Assembly (NCBI GenBank): GCA_036785375.1
Contig: JAWMAR010000578.1
Span: 992,001 to 1,056,000 of the forward strand
DNA from: Leucoraja ocellata
Lineage: Eukaryota
DNA: 64,000 nt
Direction of reading: 5' to 3'
Shown here one piece after another: positions 7,888 through 62,800 of this stretch. Position 1 is the first letter of the stretch; the number at the start of each line of letters is the position of its first letter. The notes under the pieces were generated by a model that had not been told where the DNA came from, searched no databases, and worked only from the letters and a program-made list of their open reading frames with translations. Position numbers and translations under genes: made by a program.

Positions 7888-8022
7888 TCAGTTACACGTC
7901 TTTTTTGAAGTATTCACATCTGCGTACACCGTGTATTTGTTCTGTTTGGATGCTGACGTTTTCTTGGGGTTGTCATGTTGCACAGTTGCGTAGGTCAGCT
8001 TGTCATGTCCACCTCTTTTAGT
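7888..8022 (-). CDS. Gene B terminal cytoplasmic exon: TKRGGHDKLTYATVQHDNPKKTSASKQNKYTVYADVNTSKKTCN*
   Basis: ttactttcgcag acceptor, phase 0. ITIM LTYATV and ITSM-like TVYADV; homologous to 43565-43690. Confidence 0.8.
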   Translation of the reverse strand, partial: TKRGGHDKLTYATVQHDNPKKTSASKQNKYTVYADVNTSKKTCN

Positions 8023-8866: not shown

Positions 8867-8977
8867 CTGTGAATAGGCGACATGTTGTTCTTCTTGTAGA
8901 CCATTTGAAAATCCTTTGCTCTCGCTTAAATTCAGTGTAGCATAGGCAGCGGTATGTTCAATTGGTGCTTGTCTCAC
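8867..8977 (-). CDS. Gene B penultimate cytoplasmic exon: VRQAPIEHTAAYATLNLSESKGFSNGLQEEQHVAYSQ
   Basis: cttttctaatag acceptor, CAG|gtaatg donor, 111 nt phase 0-0, two tyrosine motifs. Confidence 0.75.
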
Positions 8978-9925: not shown

Positions 9926-11155
9926 TATAGAAACATAGACACATAGAAACATAGAAATTAGGTGCAGGAGTAGGCCATTCGGCCCTTCGAGCCTGCACCG
10001 CCATTCAATATGATCATGGCTGATCATCCAACTCAGTATCCCGTGCCTGCCTTCTCTCCATACCCCCTGATCCCCTTAGCCACAAGGGCCACATCTAACT
10101 CCCTCTTATATATAGCCAATGAACTGGCTTCGGCTACCCTCTGCGGCAGAGAGTTCCAGAGATTCACCACTCTCTGTGTGAAAAAAGTTCTTCTCATCTC
10201 GGTTTTAAAGGATTTCCCCCTTATCCTTAAGCTGTGACCCCTTGTCCTGGACTTCCCCAACATCGGGAGCAATCTTCCTGCATCTAGCCTGTCCAACCCC
10301 TTAATAATTTTGTAAGTTTCTATAAGATCCCCTCTCAATCTCCTAAATTCTAGAGAGCATAAACCAAGTCTATCCAGTCTTTCTTCATAAGACAGTCCTG
10401 ACAGTCTGGTGAACATTCTCTGCACTCCCTCTATGGCAATAATGCCCTTCCTCAGATTTGGAGTCCAAAACTGTACGCAATACTCCAGGTGTGGTCTCAC
10501 CAAGACCCTGTACAACTGCAGTAGAACCTCCCTGCTCCTATACTCAAATCCTTTTGCTATGAAAGCTAACATACCATTCGCTTTCTTCACTGCCTGCTGC
10601 ACCTGCATGCCTACTTTCAATAACTGGTGTACCATGACACCCAGGTCTCGCTGCATCTCCCCTTTTCCTAGTCGGCCACCATTTAGATAATAGTCTGCTT
10701 TCCTGTTTTTGCCACCAAAATGGATAACCTCACATTTATCCACATTATACTGCATCTGCCAAACATTTGCCCACTTACCCAGCCTATCCAAGTCACCTTG
10801 CAGTCTCCTAGCTACCTCCTCACAGCTAACACTGCCCTCCAGCTTAGTGTCATCCGCAAACTTGGAGATATTGCCTTCAATTCCCTCATCCAGATCATTA
10901 ATATATATTGTAAATAGCTGGGGTCCCAGCACTGAGCCTTGCGGTACCCCACTAGTCACTGCCCGCCATTGTGAAAAGGACCCGTTTACTCCTACTCTTT
11001 GCTTTCTGTTTGCCAGCCAGTTCTCTATCCACATCAATACTGAACCCCCAATGCCGCGTACTTTAAGTTTGTATACTAATCTCTTATGTGGGACCTTGTC
11101 GAAAGCCTCCTGGAAGTCCAGATACACCGCATCCACTGGTTCTCCCCTATCCACG
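9926..11155 (-). mobile_element. CR1 LINE (family 1), 5'-truncated RT, in gene B intron
   Basis: 373-aa ORF with YLDFQEAFDKV, GVPQGSVLGP, FADD; (catagaaa)n tail; small internal deletion near 10403. Confidence 0.95.
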
Positions 11156-11586
11156 ATATCCGGTTAAATGGCCCTTCGTTAAGGATCGAAGCCAAAACTG
11201 CAATTAACACGTTAAAGAACGGCTCAAGAAAGCAAATTAAATTCTCGACAAAGGTTCTTTTCATTTTTATTTTAATTACCGTACCGTATATTTTTAAGTA
11301 TTCCTGCCACCAGAACTAATAAAGGCTCATATTTTCATCCTAAACATCACCTTTCACTTTAGAATAAATTAGGATATGATCTGGCATGGAATTGTCAAAA
11401 GATGTTGAAGCAGATACAACAGGAATTTTCAAATTATTAGTGGATGTATACTTGACGTAACCTGAAAAATAAATAATGGTTTCATCCTGCCCTAGAGTAT
11501 TCCACGATACTATAGAATAAAACTGATTTATAATATTCTGCTACGAATAATCCCTATTTTGAAACAAGAGGAGACATTTCACCTAC

Positions 11587-11630
11587 CGGCTCCCCGTTCG
11601 GACGTATTCCTACAGAGGTTACGTTATGGC
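11587..11630 (-). CDS. Gene B first cytoplasmic exon (44 nt): (G)HNVTSVGIRPNGEP
   Basis: ttcattcctctag acceptor, CCG|gtaggt donor, phase 1 to 0; same length and phase as the gene D exon at 51491-51534. Confidence 0.7.
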
Positions 11631-12275
11631 CTAGAGGAATGAAATAAGAGTTACATAAAAACAACTTGAATTGTAAAGATTGATCTGTAGATTTTGACAT
11701 TATTCTTCTCATTTTAATCAAATTTACTGCAGAAAATAAGAACGATTGCATTTTTAAATATCAGATGGTGCTCAGCAGCACCAATTGCCACAATTATACC
11801 AATACAACGCATCTTGTACTCTTTCGCGATGTTGCGCCCACTGGACCTAAATTTTAACTGAAACTTTAAAATTGTAATGGTTTATGAGGAACCGTGTCCA
11901 TGTCGAAACAGCAATGTAATGTAAACATATGGAGATGTTTGGTTTTGCTCATTGCCACAGAAAGCCACAGTTGTTTTTTCCTCAAAATCGTAATCTTCCA
12001 TTGCATTAATTATCAATCACACTGGATTTGAAAAATTCCTTATATTTGAAAATATATGCATAGGTGATAATTGAATACATCCAATTCCAAGCTGAAATAA
12101 TTGAATTTGAAGATCCATCATATTATCACACACATATATCAAAACCGGCTTCAGAAATGTCTTTACATGTCCATCTACGTTTCCTTTTCTCCTCTGTGAG
12201 CAAACACCATTGACAAATCCATTCTCGTTTTAACCATAGAAATGATTATTGTATGATTATTATCAAGATTCTTAC

Positions 12276-12386
12276 CGTGCCATATCTTTAAGCTGAGTCT
12301 TATCACGATTATAATCAGAAATAAAATTACTGATCCACCTACTGCATATACGATCATCTGTTTGCGATCAATTCCTGATGAAGCAA
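12276..12386 (-). CDS. Gene B TM exon: (V)ASSGIDRKQMIVYAVGGSVILFLIIIVIRLSLKIWH(G)
   Basis: ttttcag acceptor and CACG|gtaaga donor; hydrophobic stretch. The upstream acceptor (exon start 12401) gives V-S-stop. Confidence 0.8.
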
Positions 12387-12906
12387 CTGAAAATTAAGAA
12401 ACTGTAAAGAATTTATACATTTCAGAACAAATATACAAACGGAAGTCAACAAGGCAAATCATTTCGTAGGTGCATTTTAATACCCACATCGGAAAGTTTG
12501 GAAGGTATATCATGAGGCACCAGATGGAAGATAGTAATGGAATCCACAGGACAAACAATTGCCGTTGTATTGTGCCCATGTGTGGAAAGCTGCTTACTGA
12601 CGTTAAACGGAATTTAGGCTTTATCTTCATATATTTAACCAGACAGTAGATATATGCATATCCCAGGACGTTTTTGATCATTACAATCATTATATCAATT
12701 CAGTTTGTCAATTCATCTCACACGGATTTCCTTACAAGAACTGATGGAGTGCAATTCATTTTAAACAGCATGCAAGTGTTGCTTTCATGCAAATACATGC
12801 GAGCCACATTTACCCTTCGCTCCGTGTACGGAAAGCTGTCCAGTTATTAATCTGATCGAATTTGATCTACCGCCCCAATATCATGTGTAACTGGCTCCAG
12901 TCTTAC

Positions 12907-13200
12907 CTTGGCCCAGGGTATAACTGAAACTGGCCGCCACCTTCAGAGAAACATGTGATACCAGACAGGTGTAAATATCTTTGCCCTCCACAGGCTGCGT
13001 TATTTCCAAAGAACTAGTAGCCACAAACAATCCTTCTTCGCTCGTTTTTTTCACAGTTTCGATTCCAGTGCGAATTTCCTCGTTATTTCTTAGCCAGATT
13101 ATTTCTAATTTCTCCGGATAAAAGGCGTCAGTTTTGCACACAAGTTTCCGTGGGGAGCCAAGTCCTTCAGCAGGAACAATTGTCAAGGGAGTTGGGGGAT
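12907..13200 (-). CDS. Gene B C1-set Ig domain exon
   Basis: LVCKTDAFYPEKLEIIWLRN..YTCLVSHVSL: C1 motifs CxxxxFYP, W and YxCxVxH; 294 nt phase 1-1. Confidence 0.9.
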
Positions 13201-15211
13201 CTTAAGCAAAGAAAAAAAAATATCTGTGTTCGCTTTCCATTTCATTGCAAATATTTACATTTTATCTCGCCACCGAGTCGTATTTGTCAATACCAAATTA
13301 TTTAATTTTTAAACTTCCCAGTTTGTCGTTCATTTATACTCCCTTTCCTAGCGGATAACCGGACGAACTCCGCCAAGATACAAAGAGGGTGAATTTAAGG
13401 AGTGCCAACATAATTTAAGGAGTTCCAAAATAAACTCTGTTCTGAATGGACGTTCCCCGGTATCGCGCGAAAGTTTTTGCCAGAAGCCTGCCGTGATTAT
13501 TTAAAAGTGGCCATGTTCGGATCATTCATATGTTGCAAAAGAAATGGAGCCATCATAATCGAAATATAACAGATTTGTATAGTGTGGTGACAGGAAGCGG
13601 TTATACATGAAGATTAATGATGAATCCCGTTAGCACTTTAAGTAGTATATGGATTAAATCTCCTCACCTTGGTCAAAAAGACCCACTTCAACATGTAATC
13701 ACTACTCTACTCTACTCACTCCGACCTGCGCGAGATAACCACATGAGGTGTTGGCGCAGTAATCAACCAGAACCAGAACCAGATATGGGTTTGAAATGCC
13801 GATCACAACCATTTACCTGCATGTGAACCAAGTGCTGGAACACCTACCTTTCTCGCGCATTGAATGCTTTTATTGAAACACCGTGGTATATATTACAAGC
13901 AATCTACGAGCGCACTTATTCTATGTCAGTATGTAGGAAAGAACTACAGAAGCTGGTATAAACCGAACAACAACATCTCTTCGGAGAACGAATGGGTGAC
14001 GTTTCGGATCGAGGTTTGAAGAAGGGTATCGACCCCAAACGTCACTCATTCCTTCTACCCAGAGATGCTGCCTGCCCCGCTGAGTTACTCCAGCATTTTG
14101 TGTCTCTATACAAATCAGTTCCATCTGTTGTGCCAACTTGGCGACAGTGAATCGACATCGTTAGATCGGCGTTAATGATGATAGCTGGCAGAAGCCAAAC
14201 GAGGGAAAAGAACAAGCTCTGTTTCTCGCTGTGCAGATTCTACTCATTTAGGTCTGCACGTAAAAGGCCCTATATTTGGCATTTATTAACGCGAACTCCT
14301 TCCGTACGAGCTGCAGCCGGTGTCTAACTGGACGGGGAGTTGATTGTTGGGTTGCTTTGTCCGTTTATTACAAATCTTTAGAAAGCTTGACTTAATTCAC
14401 TTAATCAGGATTATCTTTAACGATGAAATAAATGTTACTGTTTATTCCCGGACTTTAAATAATTTCAGTTGCGATGTTGTTTACTTCTTTTTTCCCCCGT
14501 ACGGTGCCAAATTGCTTGAATAGACTGAGGTTATGCCTGACAAAATTAGTGTCAAGCGATTTCAAAAAAAAGAAAAAATATTTCATTGAAGTAGCTTGGA
14601 ATCAGCAGCGATGAGTCCCACATGTTGGAATACCAAGGTCCTTGGGTTGCAGCAGCACATTGGTCTTATGAGGTTCTAAAGCTGTCGATGTAGAATTAGA
14701 GGCATGACAGACTCTACCATCGACGTATTAAAATTGCTCCTACTCTCTTTTCTTAGTGATGAGAAACCTGGATATCACACTCCAGCCACTCAAACTAACA
14801 GGAATATTATTTAAACATCTCATTGCAAAACATTTCTAACCTCAGAATGAACTCCTTCCATCTCAGCATTTACCCGCTCTTAGCGATACATCCATCTGGG
14901 AGATTGGCCTAAAATTCGGGACCGCTAAATGAATGGGCTGCGCCCATTCATAGCGGCAATGAAAAGGAGTCTCGCATAGTATCGTACAATGAACAGAATA
15001 ACCCTCAATACCCACGCGTCCCACAAGTGCTACTCGACCTGGTGATTATGTACATTGTGCTTTGTTTCATTTTGAATTACTGGTCCCTGTAATTTAAAAT
15101 TGTTATTACCGGATATTTATCAACAGGCGATTTTTCATATTATCCTCGCGACTAGACTTTACAAATGACATAGAACTGAAAATTGCTTATTTCCCTAACA
15201 CACACACTCAC

Positions 15212-15517
15212 CAAATACGGTGATCAGGCTGCCACTTCCATTCCCGATAATCTGATGCTTGAACTTCACTTGACAGTAATACAGGCCGGAGTCAGCGACA
15301 CGCACATGTTGGAGAGTAAATATTTCCCTTCCAGAATCTATCGTAAATTGTTTTCTACTGTCCGGTTCAAGGAATGTCTTCATGCCGTCCCTCCACCAAT
15401 TAACGCCAATAGTGTCTTTCGATATTGGAAATGTGCAATACATGATAGCATGTTCACCGCCGCCAACGTCCAAGATGGCAGGGAATTGGGACACTCTGGT
15501 CGAATAGACTTCGGTAG
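15212..15517 (-). CDS. Gene B VJ-type V-set Ig domain exon
   Basis: MYC..VNWWR..DSGLYYC..GNGSGSLITV (J-like GxG G strand); 306 nt phase 1-1 with cag/gtgag boundaries. Confidence 0.92.
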
Positions 15518-15710
15518 CTGTCGGGGAAAAAGCAAGAACAATTGAAACATTTGTAAACACTGGACAGAGAAAACAGGAACCAACTGTCGAAAAGCACGAA
15601 ACAACTATAAACCCACGAGGGCCTAATAGATGAACCTAATAGCTCGAAACCAGGTCCGAATTTTCGAAAAATAATACTTAGACCAGAAATGGCACACATT
15701 TTAACTATAC

Positions 15711-15765
15711 CCTGCGTTAGTATGACCAGAAGAGCCATGGACCAAACTCTAACTTTCACCGACAT
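15711..15765 (-). CDS. Gene B signal peptide exon (MSVKVRVWSMALLVILTQ/G)
   Basis: 55 nt, CAGG|gtatag donor, hydrophobic core. Confidence 0.85.
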
Positions 15766-16916
15766 ATTACAAGAATAAATTGCCAACTTGTTGTTAGTTT
15801 ACTCAAAACTTGCTCTGCGGAAAAGGAAATTATGAGTAAATATATGAAACGTGACCGTGACGTAATATATCCCACGACTGTGGCTCGTGCGGCGGGAGAG
15901 GTCATAGTTCGGCCCATTCCCATTGTAACAAAGCCTTCCAATACTTCCTGAAACGTGTTCACAACCTCCTCCCGTAGCATCGAGATTTTTACTCGGAATT
16001 AAATATGCATCAGCTGCCTACTCAGTTAATTGTCACAAATCGTTCCGCGTAGAAGGTAAGGAGTGCATGTGAATATTTAGATGCACAAACGTAAACACCC
16101 ACCTTCCCTTGAATCTCCCTCCCTTCCCAATGGGTGTTGTGCTCTTTCGCTCTTTCGATTATATACATTCAAACAACAATCACCCATTTCGTTTCTTCCT
16201 GTTCAGCCCTCACCATCGCCATCCGCAGCTTTCTATTGATTATGTTTCCATCTGACGTTTTTAACACTAACTCCGGTTGCTATTCCTACAAAACCAAATC
16301 TCCATGCTGGTTTTTGTTAACTAATATTTCTACTATTTACATAAACACAATTGCAGCAATATTCTATGGGGAGTCCAGCAGAAAATTGGCGCCAAGCCGC
16401 GACAGCTAACGTATGAATGAAATCTATGTTTTTTCTTCCGATAATGCCCAGTAGAGCAATCAACTTATGCTGTTGACATCCACACAACCCAGGAGAATAG
16501 GGGCTGTAAATTAATCGAATGGGCCAATATAAATTAGGGAGATTTAAACCAAACTGTTAATCTTATAATTTCCTCCAAAGTATTGTTTTAAAAATCGTAG
16601 AAATGAAGGATTACTTAAAGTTTGGACTACAGGCAAGAAGCCAACGTGGTGAGCGAGGCGGTTTGAACTATTTATGTTTTCCCCGTATCGTGGTTATACT
16701 CACATTCCTCTGCACAAACCAATGATTTTGGCTTCAGAACACACATTAAATTGCACGAGCAGAAACCTGTTGTAGACCAAATGGTTAAGTAATTTTCGTG
16801 TAATTTAAATGTTTGATGCGCCTCACTTAGAGACCTTGTGCCGTTCAATGGAAGGACATAATATTCCAAATATACACAGTAATTCTCTGGATATTTTTTA
16901 AATTACTGAAATCGGG

Positions 16917-26002: not shown

Positions 26003-26101
26003 CATTTTGTGCCTTTAATTGGAGTCTTATCAAGATAATGACCAAAACTAAAACTGCCAACACACCCACTGCGCATCCGATAATTAGGTTTTTATCTGCA
26101 T
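26003..26101 (-). CDS. E-derived second TM exon downstream of gene C's own TM: (D)ADKNLIIGCAVGVLAVLVLVIILIRLQLKAQN(G)
   Basis: ccataag acceptor after a pyrimidine tract, AATG|gtgaga donor, 99 nt phase 1-1; homologous to the D TM exon (LILGCVLGVLAIL..LRIKATN). Confidence 0.7.
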
Positions 26102-26740: not shown

Positions 26741-26851
26741 CGGGCCACATCTTTAAACTGAGTCTTATCACGATTATAATCAGAATTAAAAGTACTGATC
26801 CACCTACTGCATATACGATAATCTGTTTGCGATCAATTCCTGATGAAGCAA
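26741..26851 (-). CDS. Gene C own TM exon: (V)ASSGIDRKQIIVYAVGGSVLLILIIIVIRLSLKMWP(G)
   Basis: Duplicate of 12276-12386; the upstream acceptor (exon start 26866) gives V-S-stop. Confidence 0.8.
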
Positions 26852-27371
26852 CTGAAAATTAAGAAACTGTAAAGAATTTATACATTTCAGAACAAATATA
26901 CAAACGGCAGTCAAGAAGGTAAATCATTTCGTAGGTGCATTTTAATACCCACATCGGAAAGTTTGGAAGGTATATCATGCGGCACCAGGTGGAAGTTAGT
27001 AATGGAATCCACAGGACAAACAAATGCAATTGTATTGTGCCCATGTGCGGAGAGCTGCTTACTAACGTTAAACGGAATTTAGGTTTTATCTTCATATATT
27101 TCACCAGACAGCGGAATACCGCATATCCCAGGACGTTTTTGCTCATTACAAACACTATATCAATTCAGTTTGTCAATTCATCTCACACGGATTTCCTTAC
27201 AAGAACTGATGGAGTGCAATTCATTTTATGCAGCATACATGTGTTGCTTTCATGCGAACAAATGCGAGCCACATTTACCTTTCGCTCCGTGTACGGAAAG
27301 CTGTCCAGTTATTAATCTGATCGAATTTGATCTACCGCCCCAATATCACGTATAACTGGCTCCAATCTTAC

Positions 27372-27665
27372 CTTGGCCCAGGGTATAACTGAAACTGGCC
27401 GCCACCTTCAGGGAGACATGCGATACCAGACAGGTGTAAATATCTTTGCCCTCCCCAGGCTGCGTTATTTCCAAAGAACTAGTAGCCACAAACAATCCTT
27501 CTTCGCTCGGTTTTTTCACAGTTTCGATTCCAGTGCGAATTTCCTCGTTATTTCTTAGCCAAAATATTTCTAATTTCTCCGGATAAAAGGCGCCAGTTTT
27601 GCACACAAGTTTCCGTGGAGAGCCAAGTCCTTCAGCAGGAACAATTGTCAAGGGAGTTGGGGGAT
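27372..27665 (-). CDS. Gene C C1-set Ig domain exon
   Basis: LVCKTGAFYP..W..YTCLVSH; open 294-nt exon with intact splice sites. Confidence 0.9.
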
Positions 27666-29686: not shown

Positions 29687-29992
29687 CAAATACGGTGATT
29701 CGGCTGCCACTTCCATTTCTGATAACCTGCTGCTGGAACTTTACTTGACAGTAATACAGGCCGGAGTCAGCTACACGCACATGTTGGAGAGTAAATGTTC
29801 CGCTTCCAGAATCTATGGTAAATTGTTTTCTATTGTCCGGTTCAAGGAATGTCTTCATGCCGCCCCTCCACCAATTAACGCTAATATTGCCTTTCGATAT
29901 TGGAAATGTGCAATACATGATAGCATGTTCACCGCCGCCAACGTCCAAGTTGACAGGGAATTGGGACACTCGGGTCGGATAGACTTCGGTAG
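29687..29992 (-). CDS. Gene C VJ-type V-set Ig domain exon
   Basis: MYC..WWR..DSGLYYC..RNGSGSRITV; 306 nt with intact splice sites. Confidence 0.92.
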
Positions 29993-30185: not shown

Positions 30186-30240
30186 CCTGCGTTAGTATGA
30201 CCAGAAGAGCCATGGACCAAACTCTAACTTTCACCGACAT
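30186..30240 (-). CDS. Gene C signal peptide exon (MSVKVRVWSMALLVILTQ/G)
   Basis: Same peptide as the gene B leader. Confidence 0.85.
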
Positions 30241-39615: not shown

Positions 39616-40090
39616 GAAAAATTATCGAGACCACACACAAGATTAGAAGTTGTTCAACCAGAGCTGAACACACGTCTCGGCATCTGCATACAATGGTGTC
39701 TGTTCTTGTGCTTCTAGTGCGTGGTGGTGGAAAGATTGGTGGAAACAGGGCCGCGACGTGAACGCTCCTTCCTTGACCCCATTGCATACTTAGTAGATTG
39801 AAAGTGTTATCACTGCACTCTGCTTAATATCCGTCGGCTTCGGCACCACTACCGAATTTCGGTGAATTCAGTAACCGATGGAGACAACAAAAATAAACGA
39901 CGATTGAAACATTGACATGGGAAGATGTAAGATTTATATCTTGAGATTTATTTTTTGTCATTGTTAATGGTCAGTTTTATTCTCAATTGTTTTATTGTTT
40001 TGCAATCGAATAGCATTTACTGCCCTTGTTTTTTTTTAACCACCATTATGATTAAGACCGAGAATACCGTAAGATGTGTATAATTCTCAC

Positions 40091-40189
40091 AATTTTGTGC
40101 CTTTAATTGGAGCCTTATCAAGATAATGACCAAAACTAAAACTGCCAAGACACCCACTGCGCATCCGATAATTAGGATTTTATCTGCAT
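40091..40189 (-). pseudogene. Pseudogene E TM exon: (D)ADKILIIGCAVGVLAVLVLVIILIRLQLKAQN
   Basis: 99-nt hydrophobic exon about 0.8 kb downstream of the E C1 pseudo-exon. Confidence 0.7.
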
Positions 40190-40305
40190 CTTATGGATCA
40201 AGAGAGAAACAGGGGAAATGTGAACGACATAATATATAGAAATATATACACATTTAGGAATTTAGCGATAACATTTGTGATTTTGAAACATTGATCTCTC
40301 ATTAC

Positions 40306-40997: not shown

Positions 40998-41521
40998 CTT
41001 TTTTGACGGTGTAGCTGAGAGCTGCTGGCACCTCAAGGGAAACATGATATACCAAGCAGGTGTAAACTCTCTGCCACAGAGGGTAGTTGAGGCCAGTTCA
41101 TTGGCTATATTTAAGAGGGAGTTAGATGTGGCCCTAGTGGCCAAGGGGATCAGAGGGTATGGAGAGAAGGCAGGTACGGGATACTGAGTTTGATGATCAG
41201 CCATGATCATATTAAATGGCGGTGCAGGCTGGAAGGGCCGAATGGCCTACTCCTGCACCTAATTTCTATGTTTCTATGTTTCTATGTTTAAACGGCGTCG
41301 CCTCAAGCAAGTTTAATTCCTTCCAAAAAACTGGAAACCTCATACAATCCTTCTGCGCTTCTATTTTTTTACCGTTTCTATTCCGGTCAGAATTTCTTCG
41401 TTATTTCTCCGCCAGGAGATTTCTATTTTTTCCGGATAAAAGCTCGCCGTTTTACACACAAGTTTCCGAGACTGCGATGAAGTTCCTTTAACCGGGATGA
41501 TTTTCAACGGAGTTGGGGTAG
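40998..41521 (-). pseudogene. Pseudogene E C1 exon (frameshift, stop, CR1 insertion)
   Basis: TPTPLKII..LVCKTASFYPEKIEISW.. frameshift ..GLYEVSSFLEGIKLA*GDAV[CR1]YTCLVYHVPLEVPAALSYTVKK|gtaag. Confidence 0.85.
41068..41288 (+). mobile_element. CR1 (family 1) 3' fragment inserted in the E C1 exon
   Basis: TAAAC TSD (41063-41067, 41289-41293); removing it restores DAVYTC. Confidence 0.9.
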
Positions 41522-43564
41522 CTTTAACAGAGACAAATATATTATGTATTTTGTTGCCTTGGAAAGGACGTTCACTCGTTTGTCTCACTTGAGAATTGTA
41601 TCAAAATGTTATTATGACGAGTTAACCGCGCTATTGTTTGAACCGTTTTAAGTTGTCCTATTGTTATAAACTGCTCTCTCGTCGGCAGGAAAGTGACGGG
41701 GTAAATTAAAAGCACAAAGAATGCGAGTCTATCAACTAGTGACCCATAAGAAAGGTGCCGCTGCTCTAAATAGGAGTATAAGAGTTAACGCGGGCGAAAT
41801 TGGTATTAGACATTTGTGTTTCCCTCAAAACGAGGTGGTTTGTCGAGCTGTTTTAATTTCAGAGATTGCCACGGGAACAAAATGAAATTGTCACAGCTAT
41901 CTATAATCAAGTGGTTGGGTGTGGATGAAAACTGGGTCTTTGCGAGTGTTTGGGCAGTACTGTATTTTAATGCGCGGGGTGAAGGTTTACGAGGGTACAA
42001 ATTTCACCAGGATAAATGTTTCCCGAACGCGAAGGGAATACTGAATATTTCTCAATCTGGGGAAGTGACACACTGGAAGTTGAGCGTCGCTAAATAAATC
42101 ATCACACGCACTGAAGTGGGGGAACTGAACATGCTCCTTCCCCCATGTTGGAATAACTCAGCGAATCGGCTAGCATCTTTGGAGGTATTGAACGGGTGAC
42201 ATTTCGGGTCGGGACATTTCCTTGGAAAAAGTTGTTCCAGTACTTTTTTTTAGCTCCAGGATAAAAACAACTTTCGTTTCTCGCTTGAAAACTACCACAC
42301 ACATCTGCCCAGTATGAACATTTACGAAAATATTCCATTCGCAATTTGAAGCCGCGTATCCAAACAGATGCAAATGCAATTCGCACAACATTTCAAAATC
42401 AGCACTTCGGATTTAAAGCAGATTCGAATATTATCGCGATAGTTTATTGCAGAGGTGGGGTATTGTGCCTTGGTAAGGGAGAGGTGAACAACTGCTGCTT
42501 GTATATCCATAATGGGTGACTCTGGGCTCCCAATGTATTGTGGGGTACTGTAGGTTAAGAGTCGGGCAGTGGATTTCCTTTTCTCCCCATCTATTGCCCT
42601 CGGCAGCCTATCACTATACCAATCCCATAATATATAATAGTACTTTAATCACCAGTTAATGGTGGTAGATTATCCTGACTTGTACTTCTAATGCTCTGCA
42701 ATGTGAACATGTTATGCCAATGTGGGTTTCCTTCACTTTCCTTCCTCTTTACCGTAAATTGACCCTGGGTTAGCTGAGTAGGAGACGTTGATGGGCATGA
42801 GAGAAAAAAGATGTAGAAAAATGTGGAATAGGACTGCCTAGATATGATATGTGTATGGCCTGCATTTAAGTCATTGTTAAATGCACCAATCTGTTCTTAC
42901 TCCCAGACATAATTCTTTAAAATGTTGTTCTCTAAATTCAGCCATTCAATGAGATTACAGATCTTCTCAACTCGATCTATAAGTATCCAAGTCTTTTCGT
43001 CCAAATATTTGAACAGGTGCAAAAGTCACTTCTCGCAAGGACTTGGAGTGCACCTTGTGGTTCCGCACTGCCCTAATCACTTTAGGGAACAATGCATTTC
43101 TCTCCTGGTTTGTTGGTTGGCAATTTTTTCTGTTTTGTATCAATACAGATGGCAGTCACAACAACTGATAATCTTCAAGCCGTGGATGAATTTGAAAAGA
43201 CAGTTTTAATTAAGTGAAAATAAAATTATTTTTATAAAATTGAAGTAACGGGCATTTTCTTATAGAACGTAAGCTCACTTTGTGAAATGTTGATAACATT
43301 GCACCAAATGTACAGTACAGCAGCATAAATGAGGGAGGATAGGTTTTTATGTTTGCACCTGTATGACACTGGCATTACTGTTCTTGCTTTCGTCTTGGAA
43401 AGCACTGGTTATTAACACGTCGGCTTCCGATTCTGTCAAGGTATTTCCTCTGTTGCAAATGATAGCGATCCTCTTCCCTGATCTGCGATGTGGTTCCTTT
43501 CAATTGGACAGGCAATAAATGGCAAGTGATAAGGTCTTGCATCTTCACTCATTCACAGTACCCG

Positions 43565-47909: not shown

Positions 47910-50205
47910 CCTGAGACAGACACAAAATGCTGCAGTATCTCAGTGGGACAGGCAGCATTTTAGCAGAAAACGGATAGGTGCCGTTTCGGTCCAGGACCCT
48001 TCTTCAGACTGATTGTAGAGAGGGGGGTCTGGAAGCAAAAAAAGACCAGGACAGATCAATGCCAGCAACAGACAACCCAAGACTAGGTGTTCCTGGATAG
48101 GACAATTGTTGTCTAGGGGTGGTGCGATCCCACGAGGGATACATAGAAACATAGAAACATAGAAATTAGGTGCAGGAGTAGGCCATTCGGCCCTTCGAGC
48201 CTGCACCGCCATTCAACATGATCATGGCTGATCATCCAACTCAGTATCCCGTACCTGCCTTCTCTCCATACCCCCTGATCCCCTTAGCCACAAGGGCCAC
48301 ATCTAACTCCCTCTTAAATATAGCCAATGAACTGGCCTCAACTACCCTCTGTGGCAGAGAGTTCCAGAGATTCACCACTCTCTGCGTGAAAAAAGTTCTT
48401 CTCATCTCGGTTTTAAAGGATTTCCCCCTTATCCTTAAGCTGTGACCCCTTGTCCTGGACTTCCCTAAGATCGGGAACAATCTTCCTGCATCTAGCCTGT
48501 CCAACCCCTTAAGAATTTTGTAAGTTTCTATAAGATCCCCTCTCAATCTTCTAAATTCTAGAGAGTATAAACCAAGTCTATCCAGTCTTTCTTCATAAGA
48601 CAGTCCTGACATCCCAGGAATCAGTCTGGTGAACCGTCTCTGCACTCCCTCTATGGCAATAATGTCCTTCCTCAGATTTGGAGACCAAAACGGTACGCAA
48701 TACTCCAGGTGTGGTCTCACCAAGACCCTGTACAACTGCAGTAGAACCTCTCTGCTCCTATACTCAAATCCTTTTGCAATGAAAGCTAACATACCATTCG
48801 CTTTCTTTACTGCCTGCTGTACCTGCATGCCTACCTTCAATGACTGGTGTACCATGACACCCAGGTCTCGCTGTATCTCCCCCTTTCCCAATCGGCCACC
48901 ATTTAGATAATAGTCTGCTTTCCTGTTTTTGCCACCAAAATGGATAACCTCACATTTATCCACATTATACTGCATCTGCCAAACATTTGCCCACTCACCC
49001 AGCCTATCCAAGTCACCCTGCAGTCTCCTAGCATCCTCCTCACAGCTAACACTGCCCCCCAGCTTAGTGTCATCCGCAAACTTGGAGATATTGCCTTCAA
49101 TTCCCTCATCCAGATCATTAATATATATTGCAAATAGCTGGGGTCCCAGTACTGAGCCTTGGGGTACCCCACTAGTCACTGCCTGCCATTGTGAAAAGGA
49201 CCCGTTTACTCCTACTCTTTGCTTCCTGTTTGCCAGCCAGTTCTCTATCCACATCAATACTGAACCCCCAATGCCTTGTGCTTTAAGTTTGTATACTAAT
49301 CTCGTATGTGGGACCTTGTCGAAAGCCTTCTGGAAGTCCAGATACACCACACCCACTGGTTCTCCCCTATCCACGCTACTAGTTACATCCTCGAAAAATT
49401 CTATAAGATTCGTCAGACATGATTTACCTTTTGTAAATCCATGCTGACTTTGTCCAATGATTTCACCACTTTCCAAATGTGCTGCTATCCCATCTTTAAT
49501 AACTGACTCTAGCAGTTTCCCCACTACCGATGTTAGACTAACTGGTCTGTAATTCCCCATTTTCTCTCTCCCTCCCTTCTTAAAAAGTGGGGTTACGTTT
49601 GCTACCCGCCAATCTTCAGGAACTACTCCAGAATCTAAAGAGTTTTGAAAGATTATTACTAATGCATCCACTATTTCTGGAGCTACTTCCTTAAGTACTC
49701 TGGGATGCAGCCTATCTGGCCCTGGGGATTTATCGGCCTTTAATCCATTCAATTTACCCAACACCACTTCCCGGCTAACCTGGATTTCACTCAATTCCTC
49801 CAACTCCTTTGACCCGCGGTCCCCTGCTATTTCCGGCAAATTATTTATGTCTTCCTTAGTGAAGACGGAACCAAAGTAGTTATTCAATTGGTCCGCCATA
49901 TCCTTGTTCCCCATGATCAACTCACCTGTTTCTGACTGCAAGGGACCTACAGGATACGTAATTGTGAACTGGTTACCTGACATTTAGCTGAGGATCGGGA
50001 TTGGGGAGGGAGAAGGGGCAGAAAAGCGAGGGGAGGTGAGTATGTAGAAGTTAGCAAAAAATTGTATAATTAATGTTCATACCACTATCCAAGGGTGAAG
50101 CTACCCAAGTGAATTATGAGGTGCTGTTCCACCAATTTGCATGTGGTCTTACTCTATCAATGGAGGAGGCCCAGGACCGAACCTGCCTCGGGAACTGCCT
50201 CGATA
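47910..50205 (-). mobile_element. Penelope-like element 3' remnant interrupted by a CR1
   Basis: SVLGLLH..(K)LVEQHLI..LGS motif near 50200-50075 and hammerhead-like core at ~47978-48008, on either side of the CR1. Confidence 0.55.
48143..49951 (-). mobile_element. CR1 LINE (family 1), 5'-truncated, uninterrupted RT ORF
   Basis: 580-aa open frame (KSPGPD, NYRPVSLTS, QGSVLGP, FADD); (catagaaa)n tail; GGATAC TSD 48137-48142 / 49952-49957. Confidence 0.97.
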
Positions 50206-52156: not shown

Positions 52157-52282
52157 CATTTGTTGCCTTTATTCTGAGTACTATCAAAATTATAATCGGG
52201 ATTAAAATTGCCAATACGCCCAGTACACATCCGAGAATCAGTGCGAGATTAGAGTCTGCAGGAGAAGCAGATACATTTAAAA
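52157..52282 (-). CDS. Gene D TM exon: (V)LNVSASPADSNLALILGCVLGVLAILIPIIILIVLRIKATN(G)
   Basis: ttttacag acceptor, AATG|gtaaga donor, 126 nt; uncharged TM. Confidence 0.85.
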
Positions 52283-52521
52283 CTGTAAAACAGATAAACC
52301 AAGAAACTGGTGAGAAATTAGGAGTCAGGAAGGCAGAGCACTCCGAATGTGTCTTTTTAATCCTTGGTGTACAAGCATTCCAATATATACCGAATGGAAC
52401 GAATTGCATTATTTGCAAGTTAGCGAATAAATATATATCGTCTGCTTTGATCTGTCATTTTCAGCTGACATCTCTTTGTAACCTTCCATATCTCTAGTTT
52501 CCCTTTCCACTGACTCTCAGT

Positions 52522-59840: not shown

Positions 59841-62800
59841 AATAACCATATAACCATATAACAATTACAGCACGGAAACAGGCCATCTCGGCCCTACAAG
59901 TCCGTGCCGAACAACTTTTTTTCCCTTAGTCCCACCTGCCTGCACTCATACCATAACCCTCCATTCCCTTCTCATCCATATGCCTATCCAATTTATTTTT
60001 AAATGATACCAACGAACCTGCCTCTACCACTTCCACTGGAAGCTCATTCCACACCGCTACCACTCTCTGAGTAAAGAAGTTCCTCCTCATGTTACCCCTA
60101 AACTTCTGTCCCTTAATTCTGAAGTCATGTCCTCTTGTTTGAATCTTCCCTATTCTCAAAGGGAAAAGCTTGCCACATCAACTCTGTCTATCCCTCTCAT
60201 CATTTTAAAGACCTCTATCAAGTCCCCCCTTAACCTTCTGCGCTCCAGCGAATAAAGACCTAATTTATTCAACCTATCTCTGTAACTTAGTTGTTGAAAC
60301 CCAGGCAACATTCTAGAAAATCTCCTCTGTACTCTCTCTATTTTGTTGACATCCTTCCTATAATTGGGCGACCAAAATTGTACACCATACTCCAGATTTT
60401 CTCACCAATGCCTTGTACAATTTTAACATTACATCCCAGCTTCTATGCTCAATGCTCTGATTTATAAAGGCTAGCATACCAAAAGCTTTCTTTACCACCC
60501 TATCTATATGAGATTCCACCTTCAAGAAACTATGCACGGTTATTCCCAGATCCCTCTGTTCAACTGTATTCTTCAATTCCCTACCATTTACCATGTACGT
60601 CCTATTTTGATTTGCCCTGCCAAGGTGTAGCACCTCACATTTATCATCATTAAACTCCATCTGCCATCTTTCAGCCCCTTTTTCCAAATGGCCTAATTCA
60701 CTCTGTAGACTTTGGAAATCCTCTTCATTATCCACAACACCCCCTATCTTGGTATCATCTGCATACGTACTAATCCAATTTACCACACCTTCATCCAGAT
60801 CATTGATGTACATGACAAACAACAAAGGACCCAACACAGATCCCTGAGACACCCCACTAGTCACCTGCCTCCAACCCGATAAACAGCCATCCACCATTAC
60901 CCTCTGGCTTCTCCCATTCAGCCACTGTTGAATGCATCTTGCTATTCCTGCATTTATACCCAACAGTTGAACCTTCTTAACCAACCTTCCATGAGGAACC
61001 TTGTCAAAGGCCTTACTAAAATCCATATAGACAACATCCACTGCTTTACCCTCGTCAATTTCCCTAGTAACCTCTTCAAAAAATTCAAGAAAATTAGTCA
61101 AACATGACCTTCCAGGCACAAATCCATGTTGACTGTTCCTAATCAGACCCTGTTTATCCAGATGCTTATATATATTATCTCTAAGTATCTTTTCCATTAA
61201 TTTGCCCACCACTGAAGTCAAACTAACAGGTCTATAATTGCTAGGTTTACTCTTAGAACCCTTTTTAAACAATGGAACAACATGCGCAGTACGCCAATCC
61301 TCGGGGACTATTCCCGTTTCTAATGACATTTGAAATATTTCTGTCATAACCCCGGCTATTTCTACACTAACTTCCCTCAATGTCCTAGGGAATATCCTGT
61401 CAGGACCTGGAGACTTATCCACTTTTATATTTTTCAAAAGTGTCAGTACTTCTTTTACTTTGAACCTCGTAGTATCCATAGCTACTCTACTAGTTTCCCT
61501 TACCTCACATAATTCAATATCCTTCTCCTTGGTGAATACCGAAGAAAAAAAAATGTTCAATATCTCCCCCATCTCTGTTGGCTCTGCAGATAGCTGTCCA
61601 CTCTGTCTCTCCAATGGACCAATTCTATCCCTCGTTATCCTTTTGCTATTAATATAGCTGTAGAAACTCTTTGGATTTACTTTCACCTTACTTGCCAAAG
61701 CAACCTCATATCTTCTTCTAGCTTTTCAAATTTCTTTCTTAAGATTCTTTTTACATTCCTTATACTCCTCAAGCACCTCATTTACTTCATGCTGCCTATA
61801 ATTATTGTAGATCTCCCTCTTTTTCCGAACAAGATGTCCAATTTCCCTTGAAAACCAGGGTTCTTTCCAATTTTTACTGTTTCCTTTCAACCGAACAGGA
61901 ACATAAAGATTCTGTACTCTTAAAATTTCCCCTTTAAATGTCCTCCATTTCTCTTCTACATCTTTCCCATAAAACAAAATGTCCCAGTTCACTCCTTTTA
62001 AATCCTCGCATCTCATCAAAGTTAGCCTTTCTCCAATCCAAAATCTCAACCCTAGGTCCAGTTCTGACCCTCTCCATAATGATATTGAAACTAATGGTAT
62101 TGTGATCACTGGACCCGAAGTGCTCCCCAACGCATACCTCCGCCATCTGTCCCGTCTCATTTCCTAACAGGAGGTCCAGCACTGCCCCTCCTCTAGTAGG
62201 TACCTCTATGTATTGCTGCAAAAAACTATCCTGCACACATTTTACAAACGCCAAACCATCCAGCCCATTTACAGAATGTGTTTCCCAGTCTATGTGTGGA
62301 AAGTTGAAATCTCCCACAATCACTACCTTGTGCTTATTACTAATATCTGCTATCTCCTTACATATTTGCTCTTCCAATTCTCGTTCCCCATTTGGTGGTC
62401 TATAATACACCCCTATAAGTGTTGCTACACCTTTCCCACTTCTCAGTTCCACCCAAATAGCCTCCCTAGATGAGCCCTCCAATCTATCCTGCCAAAGCAC
62501 AGCTGTAATATCTTCCCTGACTAGCAATGCAACACCTCCACCTCTTGCCCCTCCAATTCTATCACACCTGAAGCAACGAAATCCTGGAATATTTAGTTTC
62601 CAATCACAGCCCTCCTGCAACCATGTTTCACTGATCGCCACAACATCATACTTCCATGTGTCTATCCAGACTCTAAGCTCATCCACCTTTCTTACAATGC
62701 TCCTAGCATTAAAATATGCACATTTAAGAAACCCCCCGTCTCTTATTCTCTGGTTATTTCTTTTTTTTTATTTCTCCTCTTGTGTCCGAGTGCTTCTCTT

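Follow-up and report, generated by a model that had tools for sequence, protein, structure and literature searches.

Do genes at this locus make both a secreted and a membrane protein by choosing between splice acceptors, or is a stop codon that lies between those acceptors mostly spliced out? The window, a 64,000-nucleotide stretch of the Leucoraja ocellata genome, holds part of a cluster of immunoglobulin (Ig)-type immune-receptor genes, and in two of them, genes B and C, an in-frame TAA precedes the exon for the transmembrane (TM) segment. With a probability of about 0.6, judged from the DNA, the membrane protein comes mainly from two downstream acceptors (AG3 and AG2) via local branch points, and use of the upstream acceptor (AG1) is minor or unproductive.

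Genes B and C and their acceptors

Gene B is built of a leader exon, one exon each for V, C1, and TM, and three for the tail; their ends are canonical AG/GT and their frames open.

15711..15765, minus strand: leader exon, ATG at 15765 (translation, GT donor; resembles homologue leaders)
15212..15517, minus strand: Ig V-type exon (Pfam V-set/I-set; AG/GT boundaries)
12907..13200, minus strand: Ig C1-set exon with a phase-1 donor (Pfam C1-set, E 1.9e-13)
12276..12374, minus strand: core TM exon, GIDRKQMIVYAVGGSVILFLIIIVIRLSLKIWH (alignment and exon-length comparison)
11587..11630, minus strand: cytoplasmic exon 1 (weak tblastn match to homologue tails; AG/GT)
8867..8977, minus strand: cytoplasmic exon 2, with AAYATL and VAYSQT (tblastn E 3e-8)
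7888..8022, minus strand: last coding exon, with LTYATV, TVYADV, and the stop (tblastn E 2e-12)

The predicted product has 347 aa via AG3, 351 aa via AG2, and 220 aa (leader-V-C1) via AG1. By the usual definitions of ITIM and ITSM motifs, the tail has four tyrosine motifs of these types (AAYATL, VAYSQT, LTYATV, and TVYADV). Gene B thus has everything a complete V-C1-TM receptor gene needs, and we infer an inhibitory role from the tail motifs. An open reading frame at 11461-11339 that ends in ILIYSKV was rejected as an ITIM exon of gene B: no homologue matches it, its use would require a non-homologous donor, and the true tail lies at 8977-7888.

A direct sequence check places the C1 donor of gene B after 12907 on the minus strand, in phase 1. 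Three in-frame acceptors precede the core TM exon.

12402..12408, minus strand: AG1, TTTACAG (from sequence; exon 12401-12276 is 126 nt)
12387..12393, minus strand: AG2, TTTTCAG (exon from 12386 is 111 nt, in frame, and adds VASS)
12375..12381, minus strand: AG3, TCATCAG (exon from 12374 is 99 nt, in frame)
52157..52306, minus strand: TM exon region of gene D, with in-frame AGs at 150, 126, and 99 nt (from sequence)

Spliced at AG1, the exon of gene B reads G/TT TCT TAA (the slash marks the joint), with the TAA at 12396-12394 on the minus strand; in both B and C, the stop is read via AG1 and bypassed via AG2 or AG3. The sequence-only reading had reported AG1 (TTTACAG, a 126-nt exon, and GTT TCT TAA) and a second acceptor 15 nt downstream that skips the TAA and keeps the TM segment in frame, and the letters and coordinates of both are confirmed on the minus strand. 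Its count of two tandem acceptors was too low, as AG3 with its 99-nt exon had been overlooked. It had also equated 126 nt with the length of the TM exon of gene D. An AG does lie 126 nt upstream of the TM donor of D (52282-52157), but D has the in-frame AGs at 150 and 99 nt as well, and its exon length is itself a prediction.

Gene C has a similar set of exons, up to a breakpoint.

30186..30240, minus strand: leader exon (translation)
29687..29992, minus strand: V exon, open (from sequence)
27372..27665, minus strand: C1 exon, open (from sequence)
26840..26873, minus strand: block of AG1, TAA (26861-26859), AG2, and AG3 (letters same as in gene B)
26741..26839, minus strand: core TM exon, 99 nt (sequence and homologue alignment)
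26003..26101, minus strand: orphan second TM exon, 99 nt, past the duplication breakpoint (sequence comparison)

The C1 donor of gene C follows 27372, its AG1 and AG2 exons start at 26866 and 26851, and AG3 is at 26846-26840. The arrangement had been described as kept in C. The block is indeed identical, but B and C match at 94.7% over 7114 columns; they are recent duplicates, and what they have in common therefore reflects descent, not independent conservation. The longest run of identity between them in the region (87 nt) lies over the acceptors, but these 631 nt also hold runs of 73, 68, and 59 nt. By itself the stop is not beyond chance, since an in-frame stop arises in the 27 nt between AG1 and AG3 in 31–43% of shuffles (5 segments, 5000 shuffles each).

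Homology between C and B stops ∼430 nt past the TM donor, where a TM exon of another type comes next. Between the TM exon of C and gene B, neither tblastn with homologue tails nor blastn with the tail exons of B found a tail exon, although a very divergent tail could be missed. An inhibitory isoform, proposed earlier for both genes, is therefore applicable to B only, whose tail carries the four tyrosine motifs.

The rule for nonsense-mediated decay (NMD) is a distance of 50–55 nt between stop and last exon junction. Because the AG1 stop in gene B is 273 nt ahead of that junction, the transcript is a predicted NMD target. Portions of four out of 12 raw-read RNA runs (X4, X6, X10, and X13; 1–25% of each) aligned to 11170-16100 gave reads almost all on an intronic repeat; exon depth is near nil (trace depth in one TM-exon bin in run X10 and one V-exon bin in run X13), with no C1-TM joint, so these runs are uninformative on acceptors. 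P0045 (95% to C1) was rejected as splice evidence, being an intron read-through open reading frame that shows no junction.

Homologues and candidate local branch points

The closest proteins are ray and shark RefSeq predictions, up to 71% identical in C1. Cartilaginous-fish proteins labeled SIRP-alpha-like ([quoted passage not shown]) or "NCR3LG1 (B7-H6)-like" (for example, XP_062923465.1 and XP_072135227.1), names that are automatic RefSeq annotation and not tested functions, have the same leader-V-C1-TM layout. Their tail exons match, with LTYA and (L/V)YADV, and their TM exons have 33–36 codons.

Homologue spacing favors the downstream acceptors. Among 43 proteins examined, 32 could be scored for the distance from the C1 Cys to the "GG" of the TM segment, which was 30 (4 proteins), 32 (8), 33 (3), 34 (5), or 35 (12). 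The corresponding distance in gene B is 32 via AG3, 36 via AG2, and 41 via AG1, and 0 of the 32 have a stalk of AG1 length; these are RefSeq predictions from few species that include isoforms of one gene, none above 71% identity in C1. The 11 unscored proteins include TM-less forms, and two distant ones (P0024 and P0025) measure ∼40 and ∼38 by eye. The 99-nt exon aligns gap-free, also by eye, with G-A-D-T-K-x-I-L-A-C-A-V-G-G-S of ray homologues.

Mammalian SIRP-alpha has a V-C1-C1 ectodomain and four cytoplasmic tyrosine motifs. Gene B is like it in its V and C1 domains and its four tail motifs but differs in having one C1 exon per gene. Homologue P0005 matches SIRP-alpha 2wng (E 1.8e-13) via the C1 region, where Ig constant domains score equal or better, and no SIRP is among the 11 PDB matches of the V exon. 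We do not claim SIRP membership, given the single C1 and PDB matches that are generic Ig domains. A homologue search with the V exon gave no matches, and an Atlas search gave generic V-set clusters only. The literature search, with most subscription papers outside it, found no dedicated description of this receptor family or splice.

The branch-point consensus is YNYTRAY, and a sequence that fits it includes the stop codon.

12393..12399, minus strand: TCTTAAT of gene B, which holds the TAA (12396-12394) and fits YNYTRAY (A at -20 from AG3 and -8 from AG2)

A second candidate in gene B, TCTTTAC, has its branch A 19 nt upstream of AG2. PMC4358997 gives yTnAy as the consensus and, for human introns, a distance from branch point to 3' site of mostly 21–34 nt, with AGs ∼12–18 nt past the branch point protected. 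AG2 is 8 nt past TCTTAAT and 12 nt ahead of AG3, a position in the zone where, according to PMC9284458, new AGs often alter splicing, so AG2 or AG3 may be used; both give the membrane form.

Other TM exons of the family point the same way. The tract TTTCT(T/A)A..TTTTC is common to TM exons without an AG at -126, where three second-TM exons read acgg, so the tract is intronic there and cannot be coding. The 15-nt block of gene B is one base from that of one such exon. A TM exon of the family that has diverged by 39% likewise has an AG where AG2 lies, which bears on whether AG2 is a new acceptor. Counting against AG3, there are AGs at -12 and -27 upstream of it; all seven other acceptors checked have none nearer than -23.

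In the mechanism we propose, U2 would bind either TCTTAAT, serving AG3, or TCTTTAC, serving AG2. Because both local branch points are at or downstream of AG1, AG1 would be passed over, and the TAA would likely work as part of a local branch point and pyrimidine tract and not as a codon. AG1 would probably be reached only when an upstream branch point (TACTAAC at -130) is chosen, with scanning across a 186-nt AG-free zone, and in gene B the resulting transcript is predicted to be degraded. The outcome would be a normal receptor plus a minor, mostly unproductive leak, in a young cluster of mosaic copies. Gene B of the window has TACTATC and thus no distant branch A, which counts for splicing at AG2 or AG3.

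Copies in the genome

A genome search for copies gave 13 candidates, all of them matches (contigs C578, C1270, and C26). Seven carry TAA and AG2, on both cluster contigs: three B-type copies with tails and four C-type copies without. Three K-type copies read AAA TTT TCT and have AG1 and AG3. The remaining three, of M type, read AAA ATG TAT and are open from AG1, the only acceptor they have (no AG2, no AG3); a second TM exon lies ∼1 kb downstream. TAA and AG2 co-occur (7 of 13 have both, 6 neither, and no copy just one), and K-type copies have AAA and TCTG where B-type copies have TAA and AG2. In all seven TAA copies, the V, C1, and core TM exons are open, and tails are open in all three B-type TAA copies, as in the two K-type copies with tails. 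An AG at 99 nt is found in B, C, K, D, and X exon types. Two D-type copies (G000:C1270:8930-9055 and 272297-272422) have an in-frame stop of their own (VS-stop) at the 150-nt AG, where AG is followed by TTTCTTAG; gene D of the window has TGG there.

Between AG1 and AG3, copies of B, K, and M types differ from one another at 6–11 of 27 sites (22–41%), against 3–5% in the intron (Fisher P 0.003 to 6e-8), and the 27 nt upstream of AG1 are unchanged in the five copies compared. Short conversion tracts could explain this fast divergence, and so could a variable coding stalk, which would speak for AG1. Birth of the AG series by tandem duplication of a 3' splice site was not adopted, being significant in one of four types (M, p=0.01). 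The comparison of TM exons left out 2 of 15 for lack of a GT[AG]AG donor.

Introns of B and C cluster in the intron tree (support 0.868), in which one 1127-nt intron is represented by its two 250-nt ends. Trees from neighboring segments conflict, which indicates that the copies are mosaics of one another and makes the order of events unreadable. The cluster regions (G000:C578:880001-1114978 and C1270:1-300000) are similar in order and differ in copy numbers, with V exons shuffled among B, C, K, and M types. From the similar gene order, C578 and C1270 are probably two haplotypes with copy-number differences.

Several genes (C, M, and A types) have two to three tandem TM-type exons and no detectable tail (window 26003-26101; G000:C578:947153-947252 and 986981-987080; C1270:29034-29133). 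The tandem exons were apparently left by unequal crossing-over, and mutually exclusive use is possible. A broken family member lies on the minus strand at about 41000-41540 and 40090-40190 of the window, with a TAG and an interruption in its C1 exon and an altered donor at its TM exon. Contig C26 holds another ∼30 C1 exons, more distant members of the family (G000:C26:7.8-8.5 Mb and 11.96-12.15 Mb). Repeated pieces and a long open reading frame at 9930-11158, 48138-49378, and 61937-62767 of the window are presumably LINE endonuclease/reverse-transcriptase fragments, which they resemble.

The AG-free zone and possible use of AG1

Evidence that AG1 may be a real acceptor comes from the intron upstream of it.

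12404..12589, minus strand: 186-nt AG-free zone of gene B, up to AG1 (equally long in all 13 copies)
26869-27054, minus strand: 186-nt AG-free zone of gene C (from sequence)
12530..12536, minus strand: candidate distant branch point of gene B, TACTATC, with T at A position 12531 (TACTAAC in the other 12 copies; putative function)
26995..27001, minus strand: TACTAAC of gene C, branch A 130 nt upstream of AG1 (from sequence)

AG-to-AG gaps of at least 180 nt number 23 among 37,993 in the 605 kb examined, and 13 of the 23 are the AG1 zone. None of 20,000 intron shuffles gave so long a zone, and of 20,000 local shuffles just one did; these features of the zone and its TACTAAC were noticed after looking, not predicted beforehand. 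In 12 of 13 copies, TACTAAC precedes AG1 by 130 nt; the exception is gene B of the window, whose TACTATC is a single copy and possibly an assembly error. In 17 of 18 distinct TACTAAC contexts, all but the AG1 zone, the next AG comes within 68 nt. The 19 substitutions in the zone made no AG, for which the chance level is 6–7%. AG1 itself has a pyrimidine count of 9 of 17; this argues little against it, as one true gene B acceptor scores the same. Taken with the three AG1-only copies, the zone and the TACTAAC suggest that AG1 may be a real acceptor in the clade and that splicing into the stop may take place. A second long AG-free stretch (146 nt; window 13489-13637, minus strand) lies in the V-C1 intron and ends ∼290 nt before the C1 acceptor.

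According to PMC1431707, 165 of 67,334 human introns have an AG exclusion zone of at least 150 nt, and such a zone with a far upstream branch point is the hallmark of distant-branch-point exons. The AG1 intron is like these in its 186-nt zone, with TACTAAC inside it and AG1 at its end. It differs in its short pyrimidine tract, in having local candidates, in a motif that lies 56 nt inside the zone and not at the 5' end, and in the mutated branch A of gene B in the window. The same study estimates that only one-half to one-fifth of zones of at least 100 nt mark distant branch points.

These data bear on the proposal of the sequence-only reading that B and C switch between a secreted and a membrane form. 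In such a switch, a distant branch point would lead to AG1, the stop, and a secreted 220-aa leader-V-C1 protein, and a local one to AG2 or AG3 and the membrane form. Besides the intron features, AG1 is the sole acceptor in the three M-type copies, and seven of the 13 copies, spread over both cluster contigs, pair TAA with AG2. Gene C is the best case, having an intact TACTAAC, no tail found, and an AATAAA 532 nt past the TM donor, such that the stop could be part of a terminal exon and so evade NMD. There is also a known parallel. In human LILR genes, as described in PMC12827074, a soluble isoform seen in transcripts has its stop 3 nt past a donor, in the intron, and premature stops can also arise from alternative 3' sites close to the stem exon. 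Genes B and C are like them in a stop between Ig domains and TM segment and in belonging to an inhibitory Ig-superfamily cluster, but here the stop lies between acceptors and is known from sequence. Nevertheless, we consider a real switch unlikely. The AG1 transcript of gene B is a predicted NMD target, gene C has no ITIM tail found that could make its membrane form inhibitory, TACTAAC is not conserved at the aligned place in D, A, and X types, and other members are AG-poor in the homologous intron as well, with gaps of about 105–110 nt. Simpler routes to a soluble protein are at hand as well: skipping of the TM exon in gene B stays in frame and is annotated in a homologue (P0014 vs. P0015), and read-through of the intron past the C1 donor of gene B gives GKTGASYT and then a stop.

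A more specific form of this proposal is quite improbable. Here branch-point choice would set the form made, and one A/T difference would both create the stop and perfect the local branch point (TCTAAAT to TCTTAAT) that serves AG3. C-type copies would then make mostly secreted V-C1 decoys, and how much decoy a B allele makes would depend on whether it has the distant adenosine.

It is likewise distinctly unlikely that AG1 is dominant in the clade, which would make the TAA copies null or nearly null alleles subject to drift in a birth-and-death cluster. According to PMC1431707, the first AG is taken when scanning starts at a distant branch point, with a competition range of <12 nt, and AG2 is 15 nt further; the cluster also has other broken copies (stops in C1 exons and a lost TM donor). 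But V, C1, and core TM exons are open in 7 of 7 TAA copies and tails in the three of B type, a pattern of limited power in copies this young, and good candidates for a local branch point serve both AG2 and AG3, which are in frame. Least probable, and in our view very unlikely, is the second option of the sequence-only reading, in which a stalk spliced at AG1 suffered a nonsense change and was rescued when AG2 arose. The strict pairing of TAA and AG2, the K-type AAA and TCTG, and the grouping of B and C introns would fit it. But there is no intermediate copy, and K and B types already have AG3 as an in-frame route. Distant TM exons of the family share the T of TAA and have an AG or AC where AG2 lies, so that the B state may be older, and the conflicting segment trees do not give the order of events.

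If the AG1 splice is used, it would work like the soluble LILR isoforms described in PMC12827074; membership in that class needs transcripts, and genes B and C are candidates only. If branch-point choice sets the form made, one base would be both stop codon and branch point, toggling decoy and receptor, and the cluster would serve as a compact natural experiment on how distant and local branch points are selected, with K, M, B, and C types and the TACTATC variant as controls. If the membrane protein comes mainly from AG3 and AG2, as we favor, the locus would represent ordinary acceptor redundancy in a young immune-receptor cluster and a warning for annotation, in that the TM exon has three possible starts, one of them with a false stop.
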